Shown: piece after piece, positions 1,908-64,000 of the stretch
Position numbering within the stretch: position 1 is the first letter of the stretch
Layout of the letters: each line of letters begins with the position of its first letter
DNA from: Balneolales bacterium
GTDB lineage: Bacteria; Bacteroidota; Rhodothermia; Balneolales; HLUCCA01
Direction: 5' to 3'
Assembly (NCBI GenBank): GCA_041749075.1
Contig: JBGTBY010000031.1
Span: 20,342 to 84,341 of the forward strand
Length of the DNA stretch: 64,000 nucleotides
Program-made: the position numbers and the translations under genes
Notes under the pieces: model-generated
What the model saw: the letters and a program-made list of their open reading frames with translations, nothing else
The model's database searches: none
What the model was told of the DNA's origin: nothing

Positions 1908-2426
1908 TTGTCCATTATGACCAAACGCTACGAAGATACCCCGCCTGTATCCACTTCCGCTAAGGATAAAACCGTGGCGGCATCCCGCATCCGCACCAAT
2001 GAATTGGTGTTGCCGAATGATACCAATCCGCTTGGTAACATGATGGGAGGGCGTTTGCTGCATCTGATGGATATCTGCTCTGCGATTTCGGCACAACGGC
2101 ATTGCAATCGCAGTGTGGTGACGGTCTCGGTAGACAGTGTCGAGTTCAGACATCCGATCAAACTAGGTGAAGTGGTGGTGATTGAGGGTGAAGTGACCCG
2201 TGCGTTCAAATCGTCGATGGAAGTGGCGCTTCAGGTCTGGGCCGAAAACCTGCGAGCCGGAACGCGCAAGTTGTGCACCACATCCTATTATACATTTGTG
2301 GCGGTAGACTCGGATGGAAAGCCCATTCCCGTTCCGCCGGTGATTCCGGAGACCGAGTTCGAAAAGCGTCGATATGATGAAGCCGAGAAGCGTCGCGCCG
2401 ACCGCCTCTCTACTTCAAGAGCGTGA
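1908..2426 (+). CDS. Acyl-CoA thioesterase (hotdog fold, YciA/BFIT-like)
   Basis: NELVLPNDTNPLGNMMGGRLLHLMD...VVTVSVDSVEFRHPIKLGEVV pattern typical of acyl-CoA hydrolases; 172 aa. Confidence 0.8.
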   Translation: MSIMTKRYEDTPPVSTSAKDKTVAASRIRTNELVLPNDTNPLGNMMGGRLLHLMDICSAISAQRHCNRSVVTVSVDSVEFRHPIKLGEVVVIEGEVTRAFKSSMEVALQVWAENLRAGTRKLCTTSYYTFVAVDSDGKPIPVPPVIPETEFEKRRYDEAEKRRADRLSTSRA

Positions 2427-5313
2427 TGATCCGAGTTACGACGACATCATCTGTGGTGAGTCGTACGACATAAGCACCCGTGGCCAGTCCCGACGCATCA
2501 AATTCAATGCGATGTTCTCCTGCCCCAAACGTTCTGTTGGCCAACTCGGTCACGTGCCTTCCTAGCATGTCGAACACATCCACCTTCACTGTTGAAAAGC
2601 GGGTGTTCGTGAATCGGATGGTCGTGCCCGGATTGAACGGGTTCGGATAATTAGGCAACAAGGCCACTTCGGTCGGACTATCGATCCATGGCGGACCCGA
2701 AACACCGAATCCGACCGTCGATACCTCGAACACACGTTTGGCTCGCGCAGCGGCGATCTGGGCACGCAGAATGGGCAGTGTCTCCCCGAAAGCGATCACA
2801 AATCCGACAATCATCTCCTGTTGCGGCGCCAGCATGAATGATCCAGATGCTGTAGCCATCGCCACATCCGTGTTCGAAACGCTTGTATTCATGGTACCCG
2901 CTCTCAACGACCATAATTTTTCTTGTCTGGTGTAGCCGTCTTGACTCGCATTGTTGCTCGCGAAATAGGTCCCGAAATTCAAGCTATCCACAACGCCATC
3001 ATAGGCGTTATCAATCGCAAGTGCGCTGGTGATCGGTCCCAAATGAGCGATGGCGACATATGGATAAGTGTCCGTCTGATCCGGCGAATACGCATACAGG
3101 ATGGAATCTTCGGCAGAATACGCGACCGTATTATCCTCAAAATCTCCGATATCCCAATCGGCAAACAATCCGGCACGAACATTTCGCATCAATTCGGACG
3201 AGGTGTTTCGAATGGAATATTTCACGAAAACAGAACGATTTACCGCGGCTTCCTTGAACGCATACACTTCCTGAATCACTTCAAGTGATGGGGAAGCCGG
3301 GAAACCCGCGGATGTGAATATCGCCACGCCATCCGCATCTGAAATCAATCCAGGTTCCTTCACGGTGAAGGCCGCTTTCGGACGGAAATGGTTGTCGGAT
3401 ACGTTTGTGCTTCGTACCTGATTCACCATGAACACACCACGTTCGGATGTCATTGAAATCATCAATCCGGCTTCATATAGAATGCTTTCCAGCTGCAAAA
3501 GCCCATTGGAGGTTTCCACAATAGGTTGAAATCCAATGCCACCAGATCCGGATGTCGCGCTCTCATATCCGATGGTTCCATTTGTTGCGAATGACGTCAC
3601 CGCACGGTTCACATCAATCACATCGTAGAGGAAATCCTCAAAGGCGACAACCTCGAAATCGGTATACGTTGTGCCCGTGTCGCTCATCATCAGGCGGACC
3701 GTAGGCGTTTCGGTGAAATTGAAATTTTCTTGTATGAAGATCGGGATGTCGATTTGCACTGAACCCCCAGTTTGAATGACCCCGACTGCGATTGCCGACC
3801 CCGATCCCACTGTCATATTGTTGTTCAAGGCCACGGGTTGAATCGAAAACGATCCGCTCGTTGGTGCGCCATGATTGATGAGTGTCAATCGGATATTGCC
3901 ATCTTCGCCGAAACTCAGTTTGCTTCCATCATCCGCCAAAAATCGCACATTTGTGACCTCGACGCCGGGTAATGGGGTTGTCACGGCACGGCTCGCATCC
4001 ACCTTTCCTTTGCCCAGCTTAAAGGCCACATTCAGACTGTTCCCGCCATAAACCGCATTGTTGGCTGAGGATCGAATTTGTTGACGCACACGATCTGGCG
4101 ACCAGCTAGGATGCTGATGCCGCACCAGGGCCGCGATTCCAGCCACAATCGGACTTGCCATGGACGTGCCTGAGTTCAACGCATATCCATTGCCAAGAAC
4201 GGTGCTCAACACACTAGTGCCACGCGCCATCACATCCAGATCAAAGCCAAATGAGGAGAAGGTGGATCGGATGTCGTTCGATTGGATGGCACCGACCGAT
4301 AGCACTTCGGGATAGGATGCGGGATAAAAACTGGTCTCCGTATTCGTGTTCCCTGCCGCGCCTACAATCAGCGAACCCAGCGAATGGGCGAACGTCACCA
4401 CATCTTGGCCGAATGCGGAAACATTGGTTCCACCGAAGCTGCAATTGATCACATCCGCACCATATAGGGCGGCATAGAGGATGCCTTGATACCCATAACC
4501 GATGCTGGTAGGCTCGGCCACCGTACCGCCTACTCTCACAATCATGTACGTGCTGTTGAAGCCGGTTCCTGCGATGCCAATGCCATTATTGGTGTTGGCC
4601 GCGGCTAGCCCGCCCACATGGGTGCCGTGGTCGGAGCCGTTCGGTCTCGGATCGGCGTTCTGTTCCGGATTGTTGATCGGTCCGCTGTTCCAAAAATTCC
4701 ACCCGATCGTGTCGTTCGCGATATGTGAGAAAATCGGTGATAAGGTCGCAATCAATCCCGGATTCGGATTTCGCCAGTGCTTGCCTGCCAAATCCGGATG
4801 CAAGTAATCCGTTCCGCTATCCACGATGGCGATGATGATGTCGGATGAACTTTGTGTGACATCCCAAGCCGAAAACACACCGTGATTGGCGAAATAATCA
4901 TGTCCGTTTTGGCCGATGCGCGGATCGTTCGGAATCAGTTGCGTATGCAACACATATTGAGGCTCGGCATACGCCACACCTGGAAGTTGTGCCAGTTTGG
5001 ATGCCACAAACGCCGGGTCCAGATCGCTCGCATACCGGATCTCATAAGTACGCTCCAGATCATCCGGCACATCCAATCCTTTCATCCGGCGGGACTCGCC
5101 AGGCTGTAAAACCGGTGTCATGTCCGTCATCCCATACAAACGAAGAACGGACAAAACGCGATCGCTAGGGTCGGATGACCCAGGAGTAGCCTTTCGAGCC
5201 GCATCAACCGTTTCAAATTTAAGATAGAGTCGACCAGGCACGGCTTCTTGTGCCATCAGGGGAAACGTGCCTAAACAGACACTTAGGAGTAGGAATATGC
5301 GCACAATCATCAT
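2410..5313 (-). CDS. S8 (subtilisin-family) serine peptidase with T9SS type-A C-terminal sorting domain
   Basis: Signal peptide. Catalytic triad motifs AIVDSGTD (Asp), DHGTHVGG (His), SGTSMASP (Ser). C-terminus LLPNYPNPFNPGTTIRF...VFDMLGRHV... Confidence 0.9.
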   Translation of the reverse strand: MMIVRIFLLLSVCLGTFPLMAQEAVPGRLYLKFETVDAARKATPGSSDPSDRVLSVLRLYGMTDMTPVLQPGESRRMKGLDVPDDLERTYEIRYASDLDPAFVASKLAQLPGVAYAEPQYVLHTQLIPNDPRIGQNGHDYFANHGVFSAWDVTQSSSDIIIAIVDSGTDYLHPDLAGKHWRNPNPGLIATLSPIFSHIANDTIGWNFWNSGPINNPEQNADPRPNGSDHGTHVGGLAAANTNNGIGIAGTGFNSTYMIVRVGGTVAEPTSIGYGYQGILYAALYGADVINCSFGGTNVSAFGQDVVTFAHSLGSLIVGAAGNTNTETSFYPASYPEVLSVGAIQSNDIRSTFSSFGFDLDVMARGTSVLSTVLGNGYALNSGTSMASPIVAGIAALVRHQHPSWSPDRVRQQIRSSANNAVYGGNSLNVAFKLGKGKVDASRAVTTPLPGVEVTNVRFLADDGSKLSFGEDGNIRLTLINHGAPTSGSFSIQPVALNNNMTVGSGSAIAVGVIQTGGSVQIDIPIFIQENFNFTETPTVRLMMSDTGTTYTDFEVVAFEDFLYDVIDVNRAVTSFATNGTIGYESATSGSGGIGFQPIVETSNGLLQLESILYEAGLMISMTSERGVFMVNQVRSTNVSDNHFRPKAAFTVKEPGLISDADGVAIFTSAGFPASPSLEVIQEVYAFKEAAVNRSVFVKYSIRNTSSELMRNVRAGLFADWDIGDFEDNTVAYSAEDSILYAYSPDQTDTYPYVAIAHLGPITSALAIDNAYDGVVDSLNFGTYFASNNASQDGYTRQEKLWSLRAGTMNTSVSNTDVAMATASGSFMLAPQQEMIVGFVIAFGETLPILRAQIAAARAKRVFEVSTVGFGVSGPPWIDSPTEVALLPNYPNPFNPGTTIRFTNTRFSTVKVDVFDMLGRHVTELANRTFGAGEHRIEFDASGLATGAYVVRLTTDDVVVTRIITLLK

Positions 5314-5389: not shown

Positions 5390-6970
5390 ATGCTTGAAAG
5401 CCAGGAATCCATTGCCCGGACGCGTCGCATAGCGGCAATTGACCTAGGTACAAACTCGTTTCACGCCGTAATCGTTGACATTTCTCCAGACGGCCGCTAT
5501 TCCACCATCGATTCATTAAAAGAAATGGTGTTGCTCGGGAAGGATGGATTGGGTCAGAGTTTGTCGGATGAGGCCATTGAGACAGGTTTGGAAGCTCTGC
5601 AAAAAATCAAAACTCTGTGCGACAGCTACAAAGTGGAAGTGATTCAGGCCTATGCCACATCCGCCATCCGCGAAGCATCCAACGGCGGCGATTTCATCCA
5701 ACGGGCGATTGATGAAGTTGGAATCAAGATTATGGCGATTCCCGGCCAAACCGAAGCGGAACTGATCGCCCTTGCGGTGCAACACGGACTGGTGTTGGGG
5801 GAGGATCCCGTATTGATCATGGATATCGGAGGCGGGAGCACGGAATTCATCATTGGAAATCAGCGGGATGTGTTTTTTTTGGATTCAAAAAAACTCGGTG
5901 TTTCGAGGATACACAGTGAGTTTGTGACATCCGATCCGCTCAGCAAGAAAGACATCCGCCATCTCGAATCGTTTTATGTGACCAAATTGGGTGAGTTGAT
6001 GGAAGCGATAGAGGAATACCCCGTTGAAACCTTGGTCGGGACGTCCGGGACCATGCAGAACATCGCGATGATGATGGCGCATCTGAAGAAAGCGGATACA
6101 TCGGCGACATTGAACGAATTTGTTTACTCTGCCGACGAATTCAAGCTGTTCTATAAGAAATTCATGGATATGACCTCGCGTCAGCGAGCGTTGTTGCAAG
6201 GGTTGGATCCGAAGCGGGTGGATCTGGTGGTTCCGGGGATGGTGTTGTTGAATACGATCATTACGGTGCTCGGAATCAAGAAAATCCGGACGTGTACCAT
6301 GGCGATGAGGGAAGGAATTATTCTGAGGTACATCCGCCGGGAATACAAAGAACTGAAATTGTTGGTGGAATTTCCGGATCCGCGCCGGCGAAGCATCCAT
6401 GAGTTGTTGAGAAAGTGCAATTGGCACGAACAGCATTCGAGCCATGTAACCCTCCTCGCCCTGCAACTCTTCGATGCCTTGAAAGCCTGGCATCCTCTCA
6501 CAACAGCGGACCGCGAACTCCTGGAATTCGCCGCGCTCACCCACGATATCGGCTACCATATTTCCCATCACAAACATCATAAACACGCGCTTTACATCAT
6601 CCTGAACGCCGATCTGAAAGGCTTCACGCAGGACGAGATCGACATCATCGCACATGTGGCTCGTTACCACCGACGCAGCGTTCCCAAATCATCGCATAAA
6701 CAATTCGACCTGCTTAGCCCGGACCAAAAACGTCGCGTACGCGCGCTTTCCGGGTTATTGCGTGTCGCCGACGGTCTCGATCGCTCCCACTTCCAAAATG
6801 TGCAAGATTTGACCGTGAGCGTCGGGGCGGCACATGTGACCTTGCTCATCAAAACCATGATCGATCCTCAATTGGAGATCTGGGGAGCCATGCGGAAGCG
6901 CGAATTGTTCGAAAAGTTGTTCGGTCGCGAACTTCGGATCGAACGCATCGAAACGTTTGACGCCGGGTGA
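5390..6970 (+). CDS. ppx: Ppx/GppA-family exopolyphosphatase / pppGpp phosphohydrolase with C-terminal HD domain
   Basis: ASKHA N-terminus IAAIDLGTNSFHAVIV and DIGGGSTEF; HD region LTHDIGYHISHHKHHKH. Confidence 0.85.
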   Translation: MLESQESIARTRRIAAIDLGTNSFHAVIVDISPDGRYSTIDSLKEMVLLGKDGLGQSLSDEAIETGLEALQKIKTLCDSYKVEVIQAYATSAIREASNGGDFIQRAIDEVGIKIMAIPGQTEAELIALAVQHGLVLGEDPVLIMDIGGGSTEFIIGNQRDVFFLDSKKLGVSRIHSEFVTSDPLSKKDIRHLESFYVTKLGELMEAIEEYPVETLVGTSGTMQNIAMMMAHLKKADTSATLNEFVYSADEFKLFYKKFMDMTSRQRALLQGLDPKRVDLVVPGMVLLNTIITVLGIKKIRTCTMAMREGIILRYIRREYKELKLLVEFPDPRRRSIHELLRKCNWHEQHSSHVTLLALQLFDALKAWHPLTTADRELLEFAALTHDIGYHISHHKHHKHALYIILNADLKGFTQDEIDIIAHVARYHRRSVPKSSHKQFDLLSPDQKRRVRALSGLLRVADGLDRSHFQNVQDLTVSVGAAHVTLLIKTMIDPQLEIWGAMRKRELFEKLFGRELRIERIETFDAG

Positions 6971-52861: not shown

Positions 52862-52979
52862 GAAATGTTGAATGCTGAAATAAGAGAATTTTAAATGAAA
52901 AATTTTAAATGAAGAGGGGCCCATCTTCACTTAAAATTTAAAATTTGCCTGCCGGAAGGCAGGCTTTCATTTAAAATTG
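52862..52979. repeat. AT-rich double-hairpin intergenic element, copy A
   Basis: AAATGTTGAATGCTGAAATAAGAGAATTTTAAATGAAAAATTTTAAATGAAGAGGGGCCCATCTTCACTTAAAATTTAAAATT-GCCTGCCGGAAGGCAGGC-TTTCATTTAAAATT; between convergent glgP and 52982 gene ends. Confidence 0.8.
52947..52964. terminator. GC hairpin GCCTGCC-GGAA-GGCAGGC, probable bidirectional terminator
   Basis: 7-bp GC stem flanked by A/T runs on both strands; between convergent genes. Confidence 0.6.
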
Positions 52980-52981
52980 AT

Positions 52982-53635
52982 CTACATCCCCACCCCGAAC
53001 GCGATCGAGGTCATGGGTCCTTCTGAGAGCCCGATTCCTTGTCGAGTGATTGATATGTATCTACCCTGAGCGATATTGAATCGAGCCTTGATGTTCCTGA
53101 TTCTCATGTTCGGTTCCCTTTGGGTCACGAATCCGAATGCCATTCCTTGCGCGCGCTCGTTCACCTCAATGGTGAGCAAAGGAAATGCGAGTTGGCCGGT
53201 CAATCCGGAACCCACGATACCGCGATTCGGATTCACATAAATTCCGATAGGCTCCCATGTTAGGGAGGCATCGACCATCTCATGTGCCCTGTAGGAGACT
53301 CCCGCCGTGATGAATTCTTCAAGAGTGATGATGCCATGTCCACCATATCCGATGGCGTTTCCCCATACGCTATGATAGTATGGTTCTCCAACCAATCGAT
53401 CGTCATCATCCCCGATGAAATTCAGATCAAAGCGGATGACCGGTAATCCGTACTTCGCTCCTTCTACGGATGGGAAATAATCCAATTCCCAAATCGTGTG
53501 GATGGTGCGTGGGTTTAACCCATCGATGTGATCGATGAATTTGTCGACAATTTGCGCGGATGTGGTTGATGGCGAGAGAGATACAAGAATAAACGGTAAC
53601 AATAAAACGGCGTAATGACGACAACGACGACTCAT
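52982..53635 (-). CDS. Small secreted/outer-membrane-like protein, function unknown
   Basis: Signal peptide ...SPSTTSAQ. 217 aa with Gly/aromatic-rich alternating segments. Bracketed by repeat copies A and B. Confidence 0.65.
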   Translation of the reverse strand: MSRRCRHYAVLLLPFILVSLSPSTTSAQIVDKFIDHIDGLNPRTIHTIWELDYFPSVEGAKYGLPVIRFDLNFIGDDDDRLVGEPYYHSVWGNAIGYGGHGIITLEEFITAGVSYRAHEMVDASLTWEPIGIYVNPNRGIVGSGLTGQLAFPLLTIEVNERAQGMAFGFVTQREPNMRIRNIKARFNIAQGRYISITRQGIGLSEGPMTSIAFGVGM

Positions 53636-53724: not shown

Positions 53725-53845
53725 AGAAATGTTGAATGTTGTACTAAGAGAATTTTAAATGAAAAATTTTAAATGAAGAGGGGGCTCATCTTCACTTAAA
53801 ATTTAAAATTTGCCTGCCGAGAGGCAGGCCTTTCATTTATAATTA
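53725..53845. repeat. AT-rich double-hairpin intergenic element, copy B
   Basis: Near-identical to copy A (AAATGTTGAATGTTGTACTAAGAGAATTTTAAATGAAAAATTTTAAATGAAGAGGGGGCTCATCTTCACTTAAAATTTAAAATT-GCCTGCCGAGAGGCAGGC-CTTTCATTTATAATT). Confidence 0.8.
53812..53829. terminator. GC hairpin GCCTGCC-GAGA-GGCAGGC
   Basis: Lies 22 nt downstream (minus strand) of the stop of the 53851-58440 gene. Confidence 0.6.
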
Positions 53846-53850
53846 CAACA

Positions 53851-55245
53851 TTATTTTATCAGAACCATCTTCCTCGTCAGCACACCCTGTGCCGATTGGA
53901 GGCGATAGATGTACACGCCGCTGGATAGATTCGACGCATCGAATGTGACGCGATGCGCGCCGGCCGGCATCGGCCCATCGATCAATACCGCGACTTCGCG
54001 ACCCAGCATATCATACACAGTGAGGCGTAGGGACGCAAGATCTTGTGTCCCTACTTGAAATGCGATCACCGTGCTCGGATTAAACGGATTCGGATAATTC
54101 TGCGACAATCCGAATTCGACCGGAATCTGGGTGTCGATATCGGTCGTTTCGCCATATTCCACGATAAGCGTGAAACGAGGTCCATCGGTCGATTGAGTCT
54201 CAATGACCGGCGTGGTTTGCTTGTCAACGACCGATTTCTTCGCACGACGTTCCGGTGTGAATGCAACGATATCTCCTGATGTGTAAGATGTGCCCGACAC
54301 ATTGTCGCGCAAGGTCGCTTTCCAACCCATAGGCAGTAGATCGATATTGAACATCAGCTGATGTTCCTCGGAAAAGGTGCTGATCACATCCACAGGGATT
54401 TCCATCACGTCGAAGTCCAACGGAAGGTGATTAATGTCGAGCAGCTTCCCGTATTCCGAACTGAAGCTGGCCACCTGTACATACTCCGGTGAAAGGGGGA
54501 CGAGCTTGATCGCATCCATCCGGTCTTTTCCGTACAATCCGTTGGCCGTGAACTGGATCCAGCTTGAATTCGTGAGTCCGCCTTTGTTTTGGATGGTCAA
54601 CTCAATCGTAGCGATCGGGTTCGACTCTTCTTTTCCAAGGAACACGGAGTTTCCTTCCACACGGGCGGATGTGGGAACAGTCAGCGTTGGGTCCGCATCC
54701 ATGGTTTCGACGAAGAAGCCGTTGAACGGACCGATGTGGCCGTTCGCCAATCCACCAGTTGTTCCATTCCACGCGCGCCACTGCGAGGTGGAATTATCCC
54801 AGACATAGACCGAGCCGGATAGATTGGCTTTGCTGAGCTGATTCCAGTTTATGTTGGTGGTGAAGGGGTTTCCAATCAGGCTCCATCCGCCCACATTCGG
54901 ATTCAGTTTGGCGCTCAGGTTCACATCGGCGCTGAGCGTGAATCCATCGGCGCGGAGCGATTTCGGGAAGCCGACATCAGTCCCATTTCCAGGTCCGTCG
55001 TCGTCGCTGAATATGTAGGCGAGAACAGCGTTTCCTTGTGGGAAGACGGCCGATGCGTCTGTTAATGCTGTCCATTGGGTGGAGTCGCGGCTAGAGCCAC
55101 TCAAAGGCCAGGTATACACGTTCGGAGCGCCGTGCTCGACGGAGGCGCCGGTGAAGCCTTGGGTCCAGAGTCCGCGGAAGAAGGAGGCGTAGCTGGAGTC
55201 CGCGACAGGGGTGGATAACAGTCTCCAGCCTTGGGTGCCTGTGAG
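53851..55245 (-). repeat. Shared C-terminal module, copy 1 (paralogous to 59054-60448)
   Basis: 464 codons from LTGTQGWRLLST... to the stop align without gaps to the other giant protein. Some stretches are identical over >100 nt (e.g. about 54540-54650 vs 59745-59855). Confidence 0.9.
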
Positions 55246-58200
55246 TTGCGCCGATTCATCCCGGTAGTTTTGAATCCCATATTTGCTGAACAGATGGGTT
55301 TCGACGGTGTTTCGGTCGGCTTCGCTCAGCACTCCGTTATAGATGATGACCTCAGCGATGTCTCCGGCGAAGTGATATTGTGGGGAATAACCAAGTCCGA
55401 TGCCCAAATTCAGGTTTCCGGCATAAGAACTCTGTCCATTTACATTTTGGGTGGAACCGGTTCTGTTCACCGCTACGCGGAGTTGACTGGCATTTGCGCT
55501 GGCGTTGAATAGATGCGCTGTTGCGTCGGTGAAGGTGCCGTCGGTGCCCCGATCTTCCCAAACACCTCCTCTGGGATTATAGCGCAAACCGACCCCGATG
55601 TTCATTTTCAGCTCGAACTCCGACACCGCGCCACCCAACAAAAACATGGGATTGGTGTTGCTGGTAGCCGATTTGGCCACGATGAACACTTCGTAGTCGT
55701 TGTTTTGAATCCCTAAATCGGCGGTGGTGGGAAGCGTGAAATAGCTGTTGGTGCCGTTGAACCGCAGTGCCGGACGATGATTGATGACCGAATCGGCGCG
55801 TAACGGACGAAAGCTTAGAGCCGGATGGACAGCATTGTGACCGGATCCAGTCAAATTGCGCCAACTGCTCACCGAATCGTTGGAGGTCACAAAACCTCGA
55901 CTCGCATCCAGATGCAAGGCCAATAGGGTAGTGGGGATAGGGGACATGTAGGTAGTGAAATCGCTTATGAGACCTGGAATCCGTTGGTCGGTGTAATCAT
56001 CAGATGAATTCCCCTCGTTCGAATGGCCGATTCCCAACGCGCCGTAACACCCGAGGTTGGGATTGGTGCCGCACATACCGAAACTCAGTACCCTGCCCTC
56101 ATCCAGTAATGCCAAGCTGTGGTCTTGCTGAGTCACCGCCGAAACCACGCGGCGCCCATTTAAACTTGTGCCGAGGACCAACGTGGGGATGGTGTTATCG
56201 AAAACGGAGGAGGTCTCGAACCCTACCAAGCGTGCGAAACCCCAGCTGTAGATCTTGCCGGATGCGGTGCGCAGCATGGAAGTCCGGTAGCCGGCTTCCA
56301 CCTCCACGATGGTTTCGCCCGGGAGATTGGTGAGAAGAACGGGGGTCGGGACGTAAGTATCGGTCTTGTTATTCACCCCCACCCCCAGCTGTCCATCCCC
56401 ATTATCGCCGAAGGCATACAGCAGCCCGTCCTCAGTCAGCACCAGGTAGTGTGGTTGGGATCCGGTTGTGGAGGTGCTGGCGAAACCGATGGCCCCGGCG
56501 GTGACCTTTTTCCCTTCCACCTGGGCGTGGGTAGCCAAGGTAGGCACATTCAAATCATCCGAATGGCCAAAGCCCATTTCCCCGAGTCCCCCCTCACCCC
56601 ACAGGAAAACGGTTCCGTCCGAGGCGATGGCCATGCTGTTTTGTCCGGCCACCGCAATCTGAACGATGGTTTTTCCATCCAGATTGGTGGTTACCGGCGT
56701 CGGGACAAAACGATTCACAAAATCGCCCACACCCAATTGACCGGAATGATTGCTTCCCATGGCAAAAAGAGTTCCGTCGTCGGCCAATAAAAGGGCATGG
56801 GATCTGGTCTCCGACGTTGTAGATCGGTTCCAATTCACCGCGATATCCACGATGTTCTTCCCATCCAAGTTGGGATGGGTGATCAAGGTGGGCACATACA
56901 CATCCAAACTATCGCCGTTCCCAAGCGTTCCGTTTGCCCCGAAACCAAAACTGAATACCCGGCCTTCCGAAGTCAACAGGTAGGTATTGCGCCCGCCGGC
57001 TTTCACATCGGTGATGGTGTGCCCGGATAGATTGCTATGCGAGAGCAAGGTGGGGGAGGATGTGCTGAAACTCACTTCTCGGGTCTGATACCGGGTGCCG
57101 TTGATCAAGTCTATTTGACTGATGATGGGATCCATTATGAACACCGTTCCGTCGGAGGCAAGCAGCGCACCGTAATAATGATTTGTAGTCAACCTACTGA
57201 TCGTTTTGCCTTGCAAGTAGGTGGTAATGATGGGCAAAGGTCTGGGAGTATTGCCACTGTATCCGGTTCCAGCGTTATGGCCGGCGCCGTACAGGCTTCC
57301 ATCAGTTGCACGAAACAGCGACATTTGGCTACCGATCACCGCTTCCACGATCGGTTTGTTGTCGAAATAGGCGGAGGGTATTTTGGTCCAGGAGGTATCG
57401 CTGCGCATAAACGTTCCATTGCCCGATTGCCCGGCTGGATTGTCTCCAACCGCATACACCGAACCGTCGGTAGCCACGAGCAGGGCTCCTTCAAATTGTA
57501 CTGGAATGGAAGAGATGCTTGCGATGGCTTTCCCTTCCAAACTGGGATGGGTGACGGGGGTGGGATTCCAGAGATCCACCGATTGCGGACCTTGCCCCAA
57601 GCTGTACCTGTGATTTCCCCAACTGAACACGGTTCCATCGGTGGCGAGCACCATGCTTGCCCCGTTCATTGCAGCCACCTGCTGGATGGTTTTGTCTGAA
57701 AACTGGCTGCCCGGAATGAGGACGGGAGAAATGGTGGATAACGAGCCGCCATTTCCAAACTGACCGTTGGCATTAGAGCCCACCGCATACACCTTGTTGG
57801 AAGCGGTCAGCAGCAGGGTATGACTTCCGCTAGTGCTTATCTGCACCACCTTTTCCCCGGCCATATTGGATCGGTCCATCGGGGTCGGATCGAGGATGGG
57901 GTTCGTCGTGCTCCCGATGCCTACATACCCGTTGCTGTTCACACCCATCACGAATACGGTGCCTTTGTCCGACAGCAGCATGCTGTAATGCCCGCCGCCG
58001 GCGCCCAAACTACCTGTTGCCACCTGCACGATGGTGGCCGTGTCGAGGGCGGCGTGGGTGATGAGTACGGGGTTCGTATAGTGGTTGCCGTTGTTCAGGG
58101 TTCGATTCGCAGACCCGAATTCGTAGTTGTACCCGTTTCCCAGACCATACACCTCGCCTTGCGATGTCAGGAAGAGGGCATGCTGGTAGCTAAGGGAGAT

Positions 58201-58440
58201 ATCCGTGATTGTTTTTCCGGCGAAGGTGGGATGGTCGAGCGCGCGGGGGATGTCCATGCGTGTATCACCGCCTTGGCCGAGTACGCCGTTACCTCCGAAA
58301 CCGAATGTAAACACCTGGCCGTTTTCGTTGAGCACCACACTGTGATAAGCACCCACGGCAATTTTAGCTGGGTTGGATTGCGCCTGAAGCGACATCGCGC
58401 ACAAGCTGATGAATAGAGTTGCAGATAGTCGGTTTTTCAT
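53851..58440 (-). CDS. Giant T9SS cargo: tandem RCC1-repeat beta-propellers + LamG-like domain + shared 464-aa C-terminal module with type-A CTD
   Basis: Signal peptide MKNRLSATLFISLCAMSLQAQ (start 58440, not 58494). About 14-16 RCC1-type repeats (GAYHSVVLNENGQVFTFGFGGNGVLGQG..., roughly 55950-58360). LamG (ALRFNGTNSYF...GDIAEVIIYNGVLSEADRNTVETHLFSKYGI, roughly 55246-55940). C-terminus LSQNYPNPFNPSTVIAF...VYDMLGREV. Confidence 0.9.
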   Translation of the reverse strand: MKNRLSATLFISLCAMSLQAQSNPAKIAVGAYHSVVLNENGQVFTFGFGGNGVLGQGGDTRMDIPRALDHPTFAGKTITDISLSYQHALFLTSQGEVYGLGNGYNYEFGSANRTLNNGNHYTNPVLITHAALDTATIVQVATGSLGAGGGHYSMLLSDKGTVFVMGVNSNGYVGIGSTTNPILDPTPMDRSNMAGEKVVQISTSGSHTLLLTASNKVYAVGSNANGQFGNGGSLSTISPVLIPGSQFSDKTIQQVAAMNGASMVLATDGTVFSWGNHRYSLGQGPQSVDLWNPTPVTHPSLEGKAIASISSIPVQFEGALLVATDGSVYAVGDNPAGQSGNGTFMRSDTSWTKIPSAYFDNKPIVEAVIGSQMSLFRATDGSLYGAGHNAGTGYSGNTPRPLPIITTYLQGKTISRLTTNHYYGALLASDGTVFIMDPIISQIDLINGTRYQTREVSFSTSSPTLLSHSNLSGHTITDVKAGGRNTYLLTSEGRVFSFGFGANGTLGNGDSLDVYVPTLITHPNLDGKNIVDIAVNWNRSTTSETRSHALLLADDGTLFAMGSNHSGQLGVGDFVNRFVPTPVTTNLDGKTIVQIAVAGQNSMAIASDGTVFLWGEGGLGEMGFGHSDDLNVPTLATHAQVEGKKVTAGAIGFASTSTTGSQPHYLVLTEDGLLYAFGDNGDGQLGVGVNNKTDTYVPTPVLLTNLPGETIVEVEAGYRTSMLRTASGKIYSWGFARLVGFETSSVFDNTIPTLVLGTSLNGRRVVSAVTQQDHSLALLDEGRVLSFGMCGTNPNLGCYGALGIGHSNEGNSSDDYTDQRIPGLISDFTTYMSPIPTTLLALHLDASRGFVTSNDSVSSWRNLTGSGHNAVHPALSFRPLRADSVINHRPALRFNGTNSYFTLPTTADLGIQNNDYEVFIVAKSATSNTNPMFLLGGAVSEFELKMNIGVGLRYNPRGGVWEDRGTDGTFTDATAHLFNASANASQLRVAVNRTGSTQNVNGQSSYAGNLNLGIGLGYSPQYHFAGDIAEVIIYNGVLSEADRNTVETHLFSKYGIQNYRDESAQLTGTQGWRLLSTPVADSSYASFFRGLWTQGFTGASVEHGAPNVYTWPLSGSSRDSTQWTALTDASAVFPQGNAVLAYIFSDDDGPGNGTDVGFPKSLRADGFTLSADVNLSAKLNPNVGGWSLIGNPFTTNINWNQLSKANLSGSVYVWDNSTSQWRAWNGTTGGLANGHIGPFNGFFVETMDADPTLTVPTSARVEGNSVFLGKEESNPIATIELTIQNKGGLTNSSWIQFTANGLYGKDRMDAIKLVPLSPEYVQVASFSSEYGKLLDINHLPLDFDVMEIPVDVISTFSEEHQLMFNIDLLPMGWKATLRDNVSGTSYTSGDIVAFTPERRAKKSVVDKQTTPVIETQSTDGPRFTLIVEYGETTDIDTQIPVEFGLSQNYPNPFNPSTVIAFQVGTQDLASLRLTVYDMLGREVAVLIDGPMPAGAHRVTFDASNLSSGVYIYRLQSAQGVLTRKMVLIK
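54027..54054. repeat. 28-bp palindrome inside the CTD coding sequence (one mismatch)
   Basis: GTAGGGACGCAAGATCTTGTGTCCCTAC; encodes part of QVGTQDLASLRL. Confidence 0.9.
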
Positions 58441-58567
58441 AACATCTGGGACTAAGTTGACAACGGCTTCTGTTTTAATGTAGTAAAAAATCATACTAGA
58501 ATCGTGTCATTTTGCGTGCGCGGTTGTGTCAAGCTGGATTCAGCCTTAGATCTTCACAAGAGACAAG

Positions 58568-58663
58568 AAGAATTTTAAATGATAAATTTTAAATGAAGAG
58601 GGGGCATTACTACACTTAAAATTTAAAATTGGCCTGCCGAGAGGCAGGCTTTCATTTAAAATT
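58568..58663. repeat. AT-rich double-hairpin intergenic element, copy C (left part shorter, first hairpin degraded)
   Basis: GAATTTTAAATGATAAATTTTAAATGAAGAGGGGGCATTACTACACTTAAAATTTAAAATT-GGCCTGCCGAGAGGCAGGC-TTTCATTTAAAATT; overlaps the stop codon of the mini-gene. Confidence 0.75.
58632..58649. terminator. GC hairpin GCCTGCC-GAGA-GGCAGGC
   Basis: Immediately downstream (minus strand) of the 58662 stop. Confidence 0.55.
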
Positions 58664-58893: not shown

Positions 58894-59025
58894 AAATGTT
58901 GAATGTTGAAATAAGAGAATTTTAAATGTTGAATTTTAAATGTTGAATTTTAAATGAAGAGGGGGCCCATCTTCACTTAGAATTTAAAATTGGCCTGCCG
59001 AGAGGCAGGCCTTTCATTTATAATT
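58894..59025. repeat. AT-rich double-hairpin intergenic element, copy D (internal ATGTTGAATTTTAA unit triplicated)
   Basis: AAATGTTGAATGTTGAAATAAGAGAATTTTAAATGTTGAATTTTAAATGTTGAATTTTAAATGAAGAGGGGGCCCATCTTCACTTAGAATTTAAAATT-GGCCTGCCGAGAGGCAGGC-CTTTCATTTATAATT. Confidence 0.8.
58993..59010. terminator. GC hairpin GCCTGCC-GAGA-GGCAGGC
   Basis: Lies 44 nt downstream (minus strand) of the 59054 stop. Confidence 0.55.
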
Positions 59026-59053: not shown

Positions 59054-60448
59054 TCACTTAAGAAGCACCATCTTCCTCGTGAGCACACCCTGCGCCGTTT
59101 GGAGACGATAGATGTACACGCCGCTTGAGAGATTCGACGCATCGAAGGTGATGCGGTGCGCGCCGGCCGGCATGGGTCCATCGATTAGAACCGAGACCTC
59201 ACGACCTAACAGATCATACACGGTGAGGCGTAGGGACGCAAGATCTTGCGTCCCTACTTGAAATGCGATTACCGTGCTCGGATTAAACGGATTCGGATAA
59301 TTTTGCGACAATCCGAATTCAACAGGTGTCTGCGGATCGAGATCGGCCGTTTCGCCATATTCCACGATAAGCGTGAACCGATGTCCATCGGTGGATTGTG
59401 CCTCGATTACAGGACTTGAATCCGCTCCTGGCGCCGCTTTCTTCGCACGATGTTCTAGTGTGAACGCAACGACATCACCTGATGCATAGGTTTTGCCCGT
59501 CTCATTGTCGCGCAACGTCGCTTTCCAGCCCATTGGCAGTAGATCGGTATTGAACATCAACTGATGTTCCTCGGCGAACGTGCTAATCACATCCACCGGA
59601 ATTTCCATGACGTCGAAGTCCAATGGGAGATGATTGATGTCGAGCAGCTTTCCATATTCCGAACTGAAACTGGCCACTTGAACATAATCCGGGGAAAGCG
59701 GGACGAGCTTGATCGCATCCATCCGGTCTTTTCCGTCCAATCCGTTGGCCGTGAACTGGATCCAGCTTGAATTCGTGAGTCCGCCTTTGTTTTGGATGGT
59801 CAACTCAATCGTAGCGATCGGGTTCGACTCTTCTTTCCCAAGGAACACGGAATTTCCATCCACTCGGGCGGATGTGGGAATGGTCAGGGTTGGGGACGCA
59901 TCAAAAGTTTCCACGAAAAAGCCGTTGAACGGACCGATGTGGCCGTTGGAGAGTCCTCCCGTAGTGCCATTCCATGTTTTCCATGAAGAGGCGTTGTTAT
60001 CCCAGACATAAACAGAGTTTGATAGACCGTTTTTGCTGAACTCATCCCAAGCCACGTTCGTGATGTACGGGTTTCCGATGAGGCTCCATCCGCCCACATT
60101 CGGGTTGAGTTTGGCGCTTAAGTCCGAATCCGAATTCCACGTGAATCCTTCACGGAGGAAGGTTTTCGGGAATCCGGCGTTGTTGTCGTTGCCCGGACCA
60201 TTATCATCGCTGAAGATGTACGCCAGAACGGCGGTTCCTTGTGAGAAGACGGTCGAAGCGTCTGTTAGCGCCGACCATTGAGTGGAATCGCGGTTGGCGC
60301 CGTTGATGGGCCACGTGTAGACGTTCGGAGCGCCGTGTTCGACGGAAGCGCCGGTGAAGCCTTGGGTCCAGAGTCCGCTGAAGAAAGACGCATAACTCGA
60401 ATCGGCGATCGAAGTGGATAACAATCTCCATCCCTGCGTGCCAGTCAG
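59054..60448 (-). repeat. Shared C-terminal module, copy 2
   Basis: See 53851-55245. The duplication appears to include the downstream repeat element (copies B and D both end ...GGCAGGCCTTTCATTTATAATT). Confidence 0.9.
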
Positions 60449-63400
60449 CGTTGGTGCGCCGATGCGATGCGTTCCGGAATTGGTGCGCAGCCATGGGAAG
60501 GATGCGCCACTGGTGATCTGCCAGACCTCGGCGAAATCCCAGCTTGTGTAATTGGCACTGGTATTCATCTGAGCCGTTGTCAACCCGGTTCCCGCGGCGG
60601 ATGTGGCTTGGCCGCTGGTTTCGGTGTTCCAGTAGGAGTTGGTGACGGTGCCAGAATTGGAACCTATGAAACCTCCAACCGCCGTTCCACCCCCGGTCAC
60701 TGCGCCGATGCTGTAAGAATTGGTGATGGTGGAGCTTGATATAATCCGCCCGACGAATCCGCCAATATGAATATTATTTTCGGTTGATGGCACAGTTACG
60801 GATCCTGTGGAGTACGAATTTGAAATATCAGTGATGAAATTATCCTCACCGATGAAGCCACCAATACGGGATGCATCGCCCTGTATCAACATATGTCCCG
60901 TCGAGTAGGATGATGTGATATTGATTTCGCCTGAGTAGTTTTGTCCAATAAAACCACCCAAATGACTGCCATTGCCAAGAGCAGTCACGTTGCCTGATGA
61001 GGACGAATTCGAGATGGTTACAGAGCCTTCTCCGAGGTATCCGATCAGGCCTCCCATATTGCTGGCATTTCCACTACCGGACAAATTCCCAGTGGATGTT
61101 ACATGACTGATTGTGACATCACCGTTTACTTGACCGACGGCCCCTCCAATGTATTCGGGGCCATTCATTCCTAACGCAATCGATACATCAACAGTTGATT
61201 GCTCGATTATTGAATTGCCCGTCAGTTCGCCAACAAGTCCACCAATGAAAGTGATTTCGCCATTTCCACCGGCATTGATAGATCCCGAAGACACAATGCC
61301 AGTGAGTACACCATTTTCCAAAGACCCTGCAATACTACCAACATAAGACACAGGATCATCACCAAACGTGAAGTTGACGTTCACCAGCTCAATGTCATAT
61401 GCCGTTCCTCTCATGTAACCAAACAGGCCCGTGAGAGAAGCTTGTCTGTGGTATATGAAGAGATTACTGATCGAATTGTTGTTTCCATTGAAATTGCCTG
61501 TAAAGGGATAACCGAAGTCTCCAATCGGCACCCATCCCTCACCGGTATTGTATGGAGCCACATCCAGATCAAGGTCGTTGTTCAAGATGAAGTGCGCATT
61601 CAGGAAGTAGCGCACAGAGTCTAACTGAGACACGGATGTGATTTGGTAGGGATTTCCCTCAACACCCGTTCCGCCCGCGAAGGGTAAATTCAATGTGGAG
61701 GCAGAGTGTCTTGCCGGATCGGCGGTGAGATAGGCTTGACGACCCGGGATGCCATTGAATTCATACACAGCCACATGGTAGGTGGCATTTTGAGCGAGTC
61801 CGGTCACGTCTACCGATGTTCCGGTTCCGACGTAGACCACCTTATTGCCATTGCCAAGGTCTGTAGCGGAAGAAAAGTCGGGATCGCCCGTGTAGGTCGT
61901 CCAATCGACAGGAGCCGCATCCACTGCGCTACCTTGTTTGACCACAATCATTCTGTAATCACCGTCACCAGGGACAGCCGAGAGGGTCATGCTGGTGCGA
62001 TCGATATTGCTGCTTGCGATAGTACCTGATGCGGTGGGTGGGCTCACCGTCAGATATTTTCCGGTCAAGTACGCTTCAACGGAGTCACGGGCTTCCGGAC
62101 TCAGCACAGCATTATAGATGATGATTTCAGCGATGTCGCCGTAAAACCAGTTGCTACCACCTGATTTGGTTCCAACCGACAAGCCGTTGCCGTATGCACT
62201 CCGTGAATTCACTTCATTTTCTGCAACATGGACACCGTTCACAGCTAAGACGCCCTCTGTGTTCGATGCTCTCATATTGAACAGATGAGGCTGCGTGTCT
62301 GTGAACTGACCTGGGGTGCCTACATGTGAGGATGAGGTGCCATCATTTGTTAAGAATCGAGCTCCACCCGTGTCGTTGGTCCAAAGTTCAAAGTCGCCAT
62401 TTGAGACCAATGCCGTCGTCAGGATGTAATGGTTGTTGGTGTGTGAGGTAGCGGATCGGGCGAGAATGAAGATCTCATAGTCGCTATTTTGGATGCCCAG
62501 GGCTGCAGTGGATGGCAACAGAAAATAGTTCGTGCCGGCATCGTCGAAGCGGACAACCGGTTGCCCGTTCATCGCATTTTCGACAACGGATGGTTGGAAG
62601 GCAACTGGAGCGTCATGGGATGCATCATTCCCATTTTCGGATTGATCGGCCCAGGAGCTGAGTCTGCCCGCTTCTATGCCCGTTCCATAATCCGCGCTGA
62701 GGAACAATCGCAAGTTGGCGTAGGGGATGGGGGTGCGGGTGAGCACGCTGTCTCTTGCCGGATTGACCGACATATAGAGTTCATCACCAACATCACCATT
62801 GTATTCGAACACCGCGAAATGATAGGTGGTGCGTTCATCCAAACCGGTGATGGTCACGTCCATGCCATCGCCTACATAGACCACATGGTTCCCGGTTCCC
62901 ATTGTGGTGTTTCCGGTATATGTTGTCCCATCCACGGGCTCAAAATCTACGGCAGAACCGCTTTTCGCCACGACCATCCGACGATCCCCATTCCCTGGTG
63001 TTAAGCTTATTCGTGCGCTCGTGGTGGTGATGTCCGAAAAGGTGATGTCGGTTGCGGCAAGTGTCGGAGGAATCGAAAGCCCATATTTTGCAGACAAATA
63101 CGCTTCTACGGAGTCTCTTTGCAATGCCGACAAAATCTGATTGTAGATGATGATTTCGGCGATGTCACCATTCATCGCAAAGCTGTCATCTGCTCGAAGC
63201 CCTAATCTCAAATTTCCAGCGAATGAACTTCGGGAATTCTTTTCTCGGTATACCGAGGCCTTTCCGTTCACCGTGATTTGACTGAAGGTATCGGTGGCTT
63301 GCATGCGGATAAGTTGAGGCTGGGTATTGGTATAAGCACCTGTCGTACCCACATCCAAATACTGTCCGTCCGTCAGGTTATTATTGGGCGCACCTATATT

Positions 63401-64000
63401 ATTTGGTATGTACCGAAAACCTCCATTTCCAGCTCCGTTGGTATGAAGTTCGTTTCGTCCTAAGTCACCCGCTATCAGAAATTGGATGTCGTTCGTAGTG
63501 CTGTAAACCGCCGTCGATCGATACACAATGAAGATGTCGGAGTCTTTATCGGTGATATCGAGGCTGCTGGCTGTAGGAAGATTCAAAAATTGCCCACCCG
63601 TAAAGCGAATGATGGGCTTCCCGTTGATCACATCTGAAACCAGCATCGGACGCGTCACTGCAGAAGGTGCCTCCGCGTCGATGAGCGCATTACCGGATTG
63701 GTCGGACCAAGCCGTGAGTGTATCGCCGGACAAACTTGTACCCAGACCCGCGCTGAGTAGCAGACGCAGATTGGCATAGGGGATGGGAGCGATTGTCGCA
63801 ACACTGTCACGTGCCGGTGTGGTCAACAAGTAGGTCTCCACCTCTTCAACCACATCGAATTCAAAGATCGCGAAGTGGTATTCCGTTAATGCATCCAGAC
63901 CGGTGATGTTCACGCTATTGCCATTCCCAGCATACACCGCATAGGTGCCGTCGCCCAGATCGGCATTTGCGCTGTAGGCAACTCCATCCACAGGTTCAAC
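59054..64000 (-). CDS. Giant T9SS cargo (N-terminus beyond window): [FN3-like + LamG] repeats + GLUG-motif beta-helix + shared 464-aa C-terminal module with type-A CTD
   Basis: The frame continues upstream of the ORF-track GTG at 63991 (VEPVDG... is mid-repeat). Repeat marker PIPYANLRL recurs at a 352-aa period. LamG tails GDIAEIIIYN..L....RDSVEAYL..KY. GLUG-like GGLVG/GGLIG/GGFIG/GGFVG repeats roughly 60482-61684. C-terminus identical in type to 53851-55245. Confidence 0.9.
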   Translation of the reverse strand, partial: VEPVDGVAYSANADLGDGTYAVYAGNGNSVNITGLDALTEYHFAIFEFDVVEEVETYLLTTPARDSVATIAPIPYANLRLLLSAGLGTSLSGDTLTAWSDQSGNALIDAEAPSAVTRPMLVSDVINGKPIIRFTGGQFLNLPTASSLDITDKDSDIFIVYRSTAVYSTTNDIQFLIAGDLGRNELHTNGAGNGGFRYIPNNIGAPNNNLTDGQYLDVGTTGAYTNTQPQLIRMQATDTFSQITVNGKASVYREKNSRSSFAGNLRLGLRADDSFAMNGDIAEIIIYNQILSALQRDSVEAYLSAKYGLSIPPTLAATDITFSDITTTSARISLTPGNGDRRMVVAKSGSAVDFEPVDGTTYTGNTTMGTGNHVVYVGDGMDVTITGLDERTTYHFAVFEYNGDVGDELYMSVNPARDSVLTRTPIPYANLRLFLSADYGTGIEAGRLSSWADQSENGNDASHDAPVAFQPSVVENAMNGQPVVRFDDAGTNYFLLPSTAALGIQNSDYEIFILARSATSHTNNHYILTTALVSNGDFELWTNDTGGARFLTNDGTSSSHVGTPGQFTDTQPHLFNMRASNTEGVLAVNGVHVAENEVNSRSAYGNGLSVGTKSGGSNWFYGDIAEIIIYNAVLSPEARDSVEAYLTGKYLTVSPPTASGTIASSNIDRTSMTLSAVPGDGDYRMIVVKQGSAVDAAPVDWTTYTGDPDFSSATDLGNGNKVVYVGTGTSVDVTGLAQNATYHVAVYEFNGIPGRQAYLTADPARHSASTLNLPFAGGTGVEGNPYQITSVSQLDSVRYFLNAHFILNNDLDLDVAPYNTGEGWVPIGDFGYPFTGNFNGNNNSISNLFIYHRQASLTGLFGYMRGTAYDIELVNVNFTFGDDPVSYVGSIAGSLENGVLTGIVSSGSINAGGNGEITFIGGLVGELTGNSIIEQSTVDVSIALGMNGPEYIGGAVGQVNGDVTISHVTSTGNLSGSGNASNMGGLIGYLGEGSVTISNSSSSGNVTALGNGSHLGGFIGQNYSGEINITSSYSTGHMLIQGDASRIGGFIGEDNFITDISNSYSTGSVTVPSTENNIHIGGFVGRIISSSTITNSYSIGAVTGGGTAVGGFIGSNSGTVTNSYWNTETSGQATSAAGTGLTTAQMNTSANYTSWDFAEVWQITSGASFPWLRTNSGTHRIGAPTLTGTQGWRLLSTSIADSSYASFFSGLWTQGFTGASVEHGAPNVYTWPINGANRDSTQWSALTDASTVFSQGTAVLAYIFSDDNGPGNDNNAGFPKTFLREGFTWNSDSDLSAKLNPNVGGWSLIGNPYITNVAWDEFSKNGLSNSVYVWDNNASSWKTWNGTTGGLSNGHIGPFNGFFVETFDASPTLTIPTSARVDGNSVFLGKEESNPIATIELTIQNKGGLTNSSWIQFTANGLDGKDRMDAIKLVPLSPDYVQVASFSSEYGKLLDINHLPLDFDVMEIPVDVISTFAEEHQLMFNTDLLPMGWKATLRDNETGKTYASGDVVAFTLEHRAKKAAPGADSSPVIEAQSTDGHRFTLIVEYGETADLDPQTPVEFGLSQNYPNPFNPSTVIAFQVGTQDLASLRLTVYDLLGREVSVLIDGPMPAGAHRITFDASNLSSGVYIYRLQTAQGVLTRKMVLLK
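59230..59257. repeat. Perfect 28-bp palindrome inside the CTD coding sequence
   Basis: GTAGGGACGCAAGATCTTGCGTCCCTAC equals its own reverse complement. Confidence 0.95.

Follow-up and report, generated by a model that had tools for sequence, protein, structure and literature searches.

The window analysed here is a 64,000-nucleotide stretch of chromosomal DNA (it carries rho, glgB, malQ, glgP, and cca) from an uncultured Balneolales relative. Two of its genes, called here A and B, end in a sorting domain of the type IX secretion system (T9SS), which is referred to below as the C-terminal domain (CTD). The CTD coding sequence of gene B contains a perfect palindrome of 28 bp, hereafter the cassette, and gene A carries a paralogous copy of it. 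The relevant features are the following:

59054..63991, minus strand: gene B, GLUG/fn3 passenger plus CTD; runs past the window end (full product P0130, 3033 aa)
53851..58494, minus strand: gene A, RCC1 repeats, LamG and CTD (1547 aa)
59054..59308, minus strand: CTD of gene B, T9SS type A sorting domain (TIGR04183, E 5e-13); the palindrome lies between the first two long strands
53851..54105, minus strand: CTD coding sequence of gene A (TIGR04183, E 2.7e-13)
59230..59257, no strand: perfect 28-bp palindrome GTAGGGACGCAAGATCTTGCGTCCCTAC in gene B
54027..54054, no strand: paralogous counterpart in gene A; one base differs (synonymous), 13 of 14 pairs
2410..2658, minus strand: CTD of an S8 protease, free of the cassette and used as internal control

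The sorting domains of genes A and B (Por_Secre_tail/TIGR04183) are true members of the family that end at the stop codon, in the extreme C-terminus of the protein. They score 48.8 and 49.7 bits against TIGR04183 (cut-off 23) and 34.5 and 34.9 against PF18962 (cut-off 27). On the coding (minus) strand, positions 59230-59257 read GTA GGG ACG CAA GAT CTT GCG TCC CTA C, that is, V-G-T-Q-D-L-A-S-L and the first base of an Arg codon. As a first-pass annotation of this DNA had reported, the 28-mer is equal to its own reverse complement and in frame in the CTD, and the copy of gene A differs at one base. This difference is an ACG to ACA change, both codons for Thr, that creates an A.C mismatch in the hairpin of the gene A mRNA. 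The S8 protease CTD indeed has no palindrome (its best 28-nt window pairs at 8 of 14 positions), and the T9SS signal does not require it, since most CTDs and the closest orthologue lack it.

The same annotation considered that the palindrome could not be due to chance. With the base composition of the window, 2.4e-4 palindromes with arms of at least 14 are expected per 64 kb, and the next longest perfect arm has 9 (an 18-bp perfect palindrome in gene A, at 54349-54366, is the second longest of the window; the paralogous site of gene B has one mismatch). However, the window statistic alone does not carry the claim: it is a single event of 2.4e-4, which can occur in a large scan, and the copy of gene A is not independent evidence because both genes are recent paralogues, 93% DNA-identical over the last 850 nt (the last 471 residues of gene A are 82% identical to gene B at the protein level). 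In addition, all the sequences involved come from metagenome assemblies, a situation in which artefacts of assembly or sequencing come to mind. It is the recurrence in other genomes, and not the window statistic, that establishes the non-randomness of the 28-mer. The same 28-mer, in the same frame and the same loop, appears in independent JGI, ENA, NCBI, and Logan assemblies, and its flanks are continuous, functional CTD coding sequence and not fold-back copies. This recurrence refutes chance and artefact, whose probability is practically negligible.

Outside the window, 14 CTDs carrying the cassette were read as DNA, all with an exact or near-identical 28-mer in the same loop and frame, and at least 28 distinct ones are known when peptide-only cases are counted. 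The peptide VGTQDLAS occupies the same loop in 7 of the 120 best homologues of the C-terminal 298 residues, and it is found in 10 of the best 150 among 1.84 billion representatives. The domains that bear it are attached to unrelated passengers, such as CotH, ice-binding, and reprolysin proteins, among others. The DNA of six homologues is unbiased in codon choice because they were retrieved as proteins; four have the exact 28-mer, while L033 has one synonymous change and L002 two (L numbers designate the fetched loci). A scan of 185,579 species-representative genomes with the 22-mer core gave nine CTD copies, eight of them with complete CTD sequence: five in the Bacteroidota metagenome-assembled genome (MAG) G04_MAG_00058 and three in two 'Chitinophagales' MAGs. 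In the genomes with CTD cassettes, all copies seen are inside CTD loops (two of two in the window, five of five plus a variant in G04_MAG_00058, and two of two in the SRP319275 MAG). The number of extragenic copies of the 28-mer in the 64-kb window is zero, and the scan of viral contigs gave no matches. A 45-aa query centred on the cassette peptide returned short proteins only and was uninformative. A screen of CTD loops for peptides that codon degeneracy would make 'palindrome-compatible' was dropped, since controls reach 12-13 of 14 pairs as often.

The cassette is conserved at the nucleotide level, and identity stops exactly at the ends of the palindrome. Across 16 palindromic domains the CTD flanks are 63-72% identical, and the codons adjoining the cassette differ in nearly all pairs, including the five copies of G04_MAG_00058. 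When two domains share an amino acid, the codon is also shared at 92% of the cassette positions versus 46% of the flank positions. Synonymous sites of the flanks are saturated whereas the cassette is invariant, with no variation at all at its positions 10-19. Codon bias is ruled out as the cause of this identical spelling: several of the codons are rare within their synonymous families (GTA, 10%; GGG, 13%; CTT, 11%; CTA, 6%) and the probability of the spelling under the codon usage of the window is 7e-7. The residue that follows ASL can be R, H, Q, or P but its codon is always CNN; therefore, the protein changes at this point without loss of the 28th base. In L018 and L019, GTA...TAC is replaced by GTG...CAC, a compensatory change of the outer pair whose price is the substitution of Leu by Pro. 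It had been anticipated that the palindrome would lose interest if it were specific to one strain and orthologues encoded the same peptide with non-palindromic codons. In this gene the cassette is lineage-specific, since the orthologue has neither the peptide nor the palindrome; elsewhere, the peptide is always written in the same palindromic codons and is therefore conserved as DNA. The invariant peptide VGTQDLAS is thus a DNA signature rather than a protein motif.

The 28-mer folds, as single-stranded DNA or RNA, into a hairpin of 12 bp closed by a 4-nt loop (for DNA, -14.1 kcal/mol and z -8.3; in mRNA context, z -4.3). The core has no stop codon in the three frames and gives the same reading in both orientations, and therefore the CTD loop tolerates the cassette as nine extra or replaced residues. 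In an AlphaFold2 model of the CTD (pLDDT 80), residues 25-32 and 40-45 form two strands connected by a loop (33-39), so that the cassette peptide (V32-L40) is predicted to start where the first strand finishes, run through the loop, and reach into the beginning of the second strand. The segment bearing the cassette varies from 21 to 31 residues across CTDs. The left junction is constant, one codon after a conserved Phe/Tyr, and the right junction has a net gain of 0, 2, 4, or 8 aa, states that can be related by small in-frame indels.

Two simple explanations of the hairpin were rejected. It is not a property of all CTD loops, since cassette-free CTDs pair at 8 of 14 positions or fewer there, and it is not an intrinsic terminator: a consensus scan made no call and the stem is followed by GCCTCACC, with no T-run. 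True terminator-like hairpins are located 22-43 nt after the stop codons of genes A and B. An Rfam scan detected no family match at the palindrome. In L001, a GTAG-rich tract (GTAGGTCCGTAGACCGTAGACGGTAGGTCGTAGGCCGTAGGCGG) placed directly after the stop codon of the cassette gene is followed by a terminator-like hairpin and, further on, by a CTAC-rich tract (648-690 and 805-840); in L019, an intergenic TAGGG...CCCTA hairpin (5709-5732) precedes a similar ctacgg-rich run.

A different cassette can occupy the same site. Two orthologous 850-aa reprolysin-CTD proteins, 88% identical, carry ...YRVGTQDLASLHQVRLSVYD in one case and ...YRVGAIHEFPLH-VKLSVYD in the other. The palindromy of the second cassette was predicted from the peptide and later read in DNA, in G04_MAG_00058 and two Logan assemblies. 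This second cassette, GTAGGGGCAATTCATGAATTTCCCCTAC, is also 28 bp long, pairs at 13 of 14 positions, and keeps the register and the GTAGGG/CCCTAC ends of the first; its inner eight positions are different, and seven of the eight inner pairs covary (GTAGGGGCAATTCA/TGAATTTCCCCTAC). Its presence at the same site indicates that cassettes form a family in which the preserved part is a hairpin with GTAG ends.

Presence and absence of the cassette do not follow the relationships of the domains. Outside the loop, palindromic CTDs have a mean protein identity of 67%, and several of them have cassette-free nearest neighbours at 89-96%; about 90% of the most similar CTDs are devoid of the cassette. Two direct comparisons are available. 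L001, which has the cassette, and L037, which does not, are the same gene with about 96-98% DNA identity over some 560 nt, except for a patch of 88 alignment columns in which the palindrome is central and has about 30 nt of diverged CTD sequence on either side. In this case gain is favoured over loss because more distant relatives share the non-palindromic loop. The second comparison is that of the window genes with L031, which is syntenic with them (it has the same 217-aa open reading frame (ORF) and the glycogen phosphorylase gene). Window genes and L031 are about 85-100% identical except for a patch of 100-150 nt that holds the palindrome; L031 has FQLSVDGRTSLKVYD in its place. The patches are:

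59129..59279 (approximate), minus strand: diverged patch of gene B versus L031; identity drops to 33-70% (alignment columns about 585-735); putative gene-conversion tract
53926..54076, minus strand: the same patch in gene A versus L031

In both the allele and the orthologue comparison the borders of the patch are located 20-60 nt outside the palindrome, on both sides. These patches of about 90-150 nt were probably produced by ectopic gene conversion over short tracts between paralogous CTDs.

The first-pass annotation had also proposed that the palindrome is a recombination site that drives the exchange of modules, and this proposal finds no support as it was stated. A core site for a tyrosine or serine recombinase, or for an enzyme resolving hairpins, that swaps CTD tails or inverts segments would be expected to have the perfect 11-6-11 layout that is observed; the cassette is always within recombination patches; and between the two reprolysin orthologues the interior was swapped while the GTAGGG/CCCTAC ends and the flanks stayed. 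However, a site-specific exchange point is unlikely because the palindrome is inside the tracts and not at their borders, and because the identity between genes A and B is continuous (93-100% on either side of the palindrome, with no breakpoint). Besides, no recombinase or transposase domain (Pfam) was detected among the 22 large ORFs of the window that were scanned, and with full symmetry a site would yield futile inversions and useful swaps at equal frequency. A recombinase site is therefore improbable, and a Xer/dif-like 11-6-11 core site was rejected on account of the patch borders and of the continuous identity between both genes.

Another possibility is that the palindrome arose only once in situ, e.g., by template switching on a quasi-palindrome, and has since been inherited with a CTD subfamily that was shuffled among genes. 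Several details of the junctions fit with this idea: the right arm of the '+0' class (TCC CTA C) falls in the register of the S-L-[KR]-V-Y-D that is usual in standard CTDs, the left junction is constant, the +0, +2, and +4 forms are interrelatable, and the VGT...SL codons are partly self-complementary, quasi-palindrome correction being an established process (PMC7202029). However, palindromic CTDs do not cluster by their flanks, several being closer to cassette-free domains, and the two comparisons described above show patchwise presence or absence in near-identical genes. Inheritance with the domain is also at odds with the saturated flanks around an invariant cassette and with the different second cassette at the same site. 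A single origin in situ may explain how the cassette began but not its distribution, and as a whole it is somewhat less probable than a recombinase site.

We favour, with moderate confidence, a reading in which the cassette is a hairpin of the repetitive extragenic palindromic (REP) type that a variable loop of the CTD tolerates, that spreads through gene conversion of short patches, and that plays no part in secretion. REPs of the GTAG class consist of a GT[AG]G tag, a stem of 6-13 bp rich in G+C, and a loop of 2-4 nt (PMC3733652; PMC2817692). Their sub-families differ by complementary changes in the stem, and some copies are intragenic and translated, in loops or linkers, where they are thought to be neutral (PMC3733652). 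The cassette can be written as GTAG + GGACGCAA + GATC + TTGCGTCC + CTAC, and its 12-bp stem and 4-nt loop are those of a GTAG REP stem-loop (20-40 bp). Sub-families also exist, namely the GTGG variants of L018 and L019 and a second stem family in L034. Other variants of the terminal tag are TTAG and ATAG, in L009 and L015.

According to this reading, the cassette would be a GTAG-tagged hairpin (GTAG head, G+C-rich stem of 8-12 bp, 4-nt loop) that is mirrored, so that both strands read alike. It would not be inherited with the domain but would move among CTD-coding sequences, both between paralogues of one genome and among genes of related Balneolales-like Bacteroidota. This movement would take place by homologous gene conversion of about 90-150 nt on the conserved CTD flanks, and serial transfers would leave the hairpin as the only part common to all copies. 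The symmetry would probably be kept by the hairpin itself, through templated correction from arm to arm and/or poor mismatch repair of hairpin heterologies or, alternatively, by an enzyme that recognises GTAG hairpins. The cassette most likely behaves as tolerated selfish DNA without a role in secretion. What the sequences show directly is a discrete and recurrent cassette, conserved as nucleotides, gained or lost in patches, situated in a loop, and accompanied by a second member of its family; the selfishness, the way in which symmetry is maintained, and any mobilisation by a REP-associated tyrosine transposase (RAYT) are matters that we infer. Among the options of the first-pass annotation, an element inserted in frame is the one that fits best, since the cassette is a discrete unit with sharp ends, present in unrelated CTD backgrounds, absent from near-identical alleles, and replaced by another palindrome at one orthologous site.

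Several facts do not sit well with a REP-like selfish hairpin. The cassette has GTAG at both ends and pairs it with a mirror CTAC, while the REP tag is described as unpaired and at one end. REPs are present in many copies per genome, mostly extragenic and near the 3' ends of ORFs, whereas the cassette is intragenic only: there is no extragenic copy among the nine exact-core copies of three CTD-cassette genomes, all partial sequences. GTAG REPs go with a cognate RAYT gene (a Y1 transposase) that the same hairpins flank, and none of the 22 window ORFs scanned matches a Pfam transposase family. All copies seen occupy one and the same place, the loop of the CTD, a pattern shown neither by classical REPs nor by random insertion. 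Movement of the cassette is seen only as homologous patch conversion and not as insertion; the comparison of junctions found no target-site duplication, no fixed insertion target, and no simple insertion footprint, and loop codons are replaced. The identity that ends sharply at the ends of the palindrome requires drive, or selection on the hairpin, beyond gene conversion. Finally, in the orthologous set formed by L002, L004, L011, and L033 the cassette has 0-2 changes versus about 4-6 predicted from the divergence of the flanks, which could reflect functional constraint and not neutrality. A 5-bp repeat in L019 was considered as a target-site duplication, but a tandem duplication of 12 nt within the left arm accounts for it better.

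Functional constraint would be expected if the hairpin were a cis-acting element of a subset of T9SS cargo genes, with recombination recruiting genes into a regulon. Such an element might work at the mRNA level, its 12-bp stem and GAUC loop affecting stability, processing, or translational pausing before the CTD, or being bound by an RNA-binding protein; alternatively, it might work in the DNA, as the operator of a dimeric regulator. In addition to the low number of changes in this orthologous set, the hairpin is very stable, its sequence and not just its structure is conserved across at least 28 CTDs (positions 10-19 being invariant), and its arms covary in the second cassette and in L018 and L019. 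Variants compatible with G.U pairing in the mRNA are those of L033 and, if its ACG has become ATG as the peptide suggests, of P0269. However, the hairpin is dispensable, as judged from the near-identical alleles, the syntenic orthologue, and the great majority of similar CTDs that do without it. Some copies are decaying through synonymous changes that produce mismatches (A.C in gene A, U.U in L002), and the quite different stem of the second cassette argues against a sequence-specific reader. Neither a T-run nor an Rfam family is associated with it, and the site, some 190 nt ahead of the stop codon, is an unusual one for an operator or a stabilising element in genes that have their own terminator hairpins downstream. 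A regulatory function is thus rather unlikely, although it deserves more credit than a recombinase site or a single origin in situ.

The core of the cassette also exists outside sorting domains. The 22-mer is found in intergenic hairpins of Fibrobacterota, Endomicrobiales, and Cyclobacteriaceae, and in soil contigs, in which outer arms lengthen the palindrome up to 50 bp. In L008, L010, L023, L024, and L027 (a Fibrobacterota MAG and metagenome contigs) the core is the tip of a longer, multi-copy repeat; the Fibrobacterota repeat reads ...ggaacgacgaaGGGACGC...GTCCCttcg..., then gggaccgggctgcctgccaagcctcggc..., with several copies per genome. Some core copies are plain terminator-like hairpins. 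For instance, in Cyclobacteriaceae/Bacteroidetes loci the hairpin is situated 4-8 nt after a pair of tRNA-Leu(GAG)/tRNA-Leu(CAG) genes, the latter being the adjacent one:

L013, 7895-7924: core hairpin adjoining tRNA-Leu
L017, 7655-7676: core hairpin adjoining tRNA-Leu
L022, 4953-4982: core hairpin adjoining tRNA-Leu
L028, 7656-7685: core hairpin adjoining tRNA-Leu

L022 (1919-1938) and L028 (10700-10719) each have a shorter second copy (GGACGCAAGATCTTGCGTCC) at a distance of about 3 kb, and L017 contains four tandem tRNA-like genes to which ARAGORN assigns a 2-nt anticodon. These cross-phylum copies were not counted as the same element, as a few identical matches in 596 Gb could be due to convergence: the number of different 22-bp palindromes is only 4^11, and perfect palindromes abound in these genomes. 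Genomes with the cassette hold other perfect intergenic palindromes of 22-26 bp, such as TAGCCGGGGGCTTAAGCCCCCGGCTA, CAGGGTGGGGCTTAAGCCCCACCCTG, and GAGGCGTAAGATCTTACGCCTC (L018 1688-1713 and 2342-2367; L007 1150-1171), the last of these sequences being the tip of a terminator-like hairpin. In the fetched loci, about one unrelated perfect palindrome with arms of at least 11 is found per 90 kb.

A coding example comes from Peregrinibacteria. A 1541-aa LTD/nuclease protein (L016 3106-7731, minus strand, PFOK01000098.1; the same locus as L025) contains eight in-frame hairpins headed by GTAG, all located in acidic linkers and in the frame V-[GE]-T-x-x-x-x-S. Five are perfect palindromes of 20-24 bp, the identical 22-mer core is present in one of the eight, and covarying arms are seen in the rest; their peptides are VGTQDLAS, VGTRDLAS, VGTQDLVS, VGTPHVVS, GTTRELS, and VETQNIAS (three times). 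These hairpins, too, were not counted as the same element, since they may have arisen by convergence, but the frame and the GTAG head that they share with the CTD cassette are striking. Together with the same core in the intergenic hairpins of Fibrobacterota, Endomicrobiales, and Cyclobacteriaceae, the hairpins of this protein are leads towards a broader and quite speculative idea: GTAG-headed hairpins might constitute a cross-phylum class of protein-coding palindromes, propagated by a RAYT-like enzyme or by hairpin-biased conversion, that colonise loops and linkers of secreted or surface proteins in the V-G-T....S frame and serve as portable in-frame cassettes of homology and recombination. 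If so, they would speed the shuffling of secreted and surface proteins.

The window contains a further repeat, different from the cassette, around genes A and B. This composite intergenic repeat of about 95 nt is present in four copies, about 90% identical (52870-52975, 53735-53840, 58555-58660, and approximately 58945-59015), and begins with an AT-rich hairpin (AATTTTAAATGAAGAGGGGGC.CATCTTCACTTAAAATT), which is followed by the G+C hairpin GGCCTGCCGAGAGGCAGGCC and a tail rich in T. Three of the four copies are found just 3' of gene ends (glgP/217-aa ORF, gene A, and gene B), and the copy at 58555-58660 is about 60 nt upstream of the start of gene A. Positions 52927-52993 (minus strand) give a sub-threshold match to the Rfam family RAGATH-32 (29.2 versus 41.8 bits). 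Small PID_CTERM (PF28310) genes adjoin the cargo genes in L031 (1002-1184) and L037 (284-499); the window has none at that position. Exact record look-ups for the gene A product, its 217-aa neighbour, and P0130 gave no match.

The cassette is of use beyond its origin. Since a genome has hundreds of CTD paralogues, it serves as a natural marker of ectopic conversion among them, and the tracts that it reveals are as short as about 90-150 nt. In the CTD, the first inter-strand loop takes 9-13 foreign residues and is thus a permissive site, useful for tagging T9SS cargo proteins. The cassette also offers a test case for the upkeep of perfect DNA symmetry inside a reading frame, and another for the spread of a REP-type hairpin by hitch-hiking on a repeated protein domain versus transposition. 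In annotation, the invariance of VGTQDLAS should be taken with caution, since it stems from the DNA and not from a protein motif.

Among systems other than REPs, a miniature inverted-repeat transposable element was rejected, since there is no constant flanking duplication, junction registers vary, and loop codons are replaced. No description of the sequence, of the peptide, or of palindromes in T9SS CTDs came up in literature searches. The Rickettsia palindromic elements (RPEs; Ogata et al. 2000, Science; 2002, Genome Res; summarised in PMC10969869) are palindromic selfish DNA of about 100-150 bp that is found in frame in many unrelated housekeeping genes, translated, and tolerated at surface-exposed sites. 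The cassette resembles them in being palindromic, in frame, translated, and tolerated at a surface-exposed site. However, it has 28 bp and is present only in the T9SS CTD loop of Bacteroidota, while RPEs are confined to Rickettsia; thus, it is an analogue and not a member. The palindromic amphipathic repeat coding elements (PARCELs) are tandem repeats of 25 amphipathic residues encoded by dyad-symmetric DNA (PMC2996958). Dyad symmetry in coding DNA, presence in surface or secreted proteins, patchy distribution, and inferred horizontal gene transfer and intragenomic shuffling are common to both, but the cassette is a single nine-residue unit per protein in the loop of a beta-sandwich and, again, an analogue. 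Template-switch mutagenesis turns imperfect inverted repeats into perfect ones (PMC7202029) and could keep the arms of the cassette identical without selection; it accounts for the symmetry but not for the same sequence across many genes and genomes. While translated palindromic repeats are already known, as RPEs and intragenic REPs illustrate, a hairpin cassette tied to one loop of one of the most abundant secretion-signal domains of Bacteroidota is an undescribed form of them.

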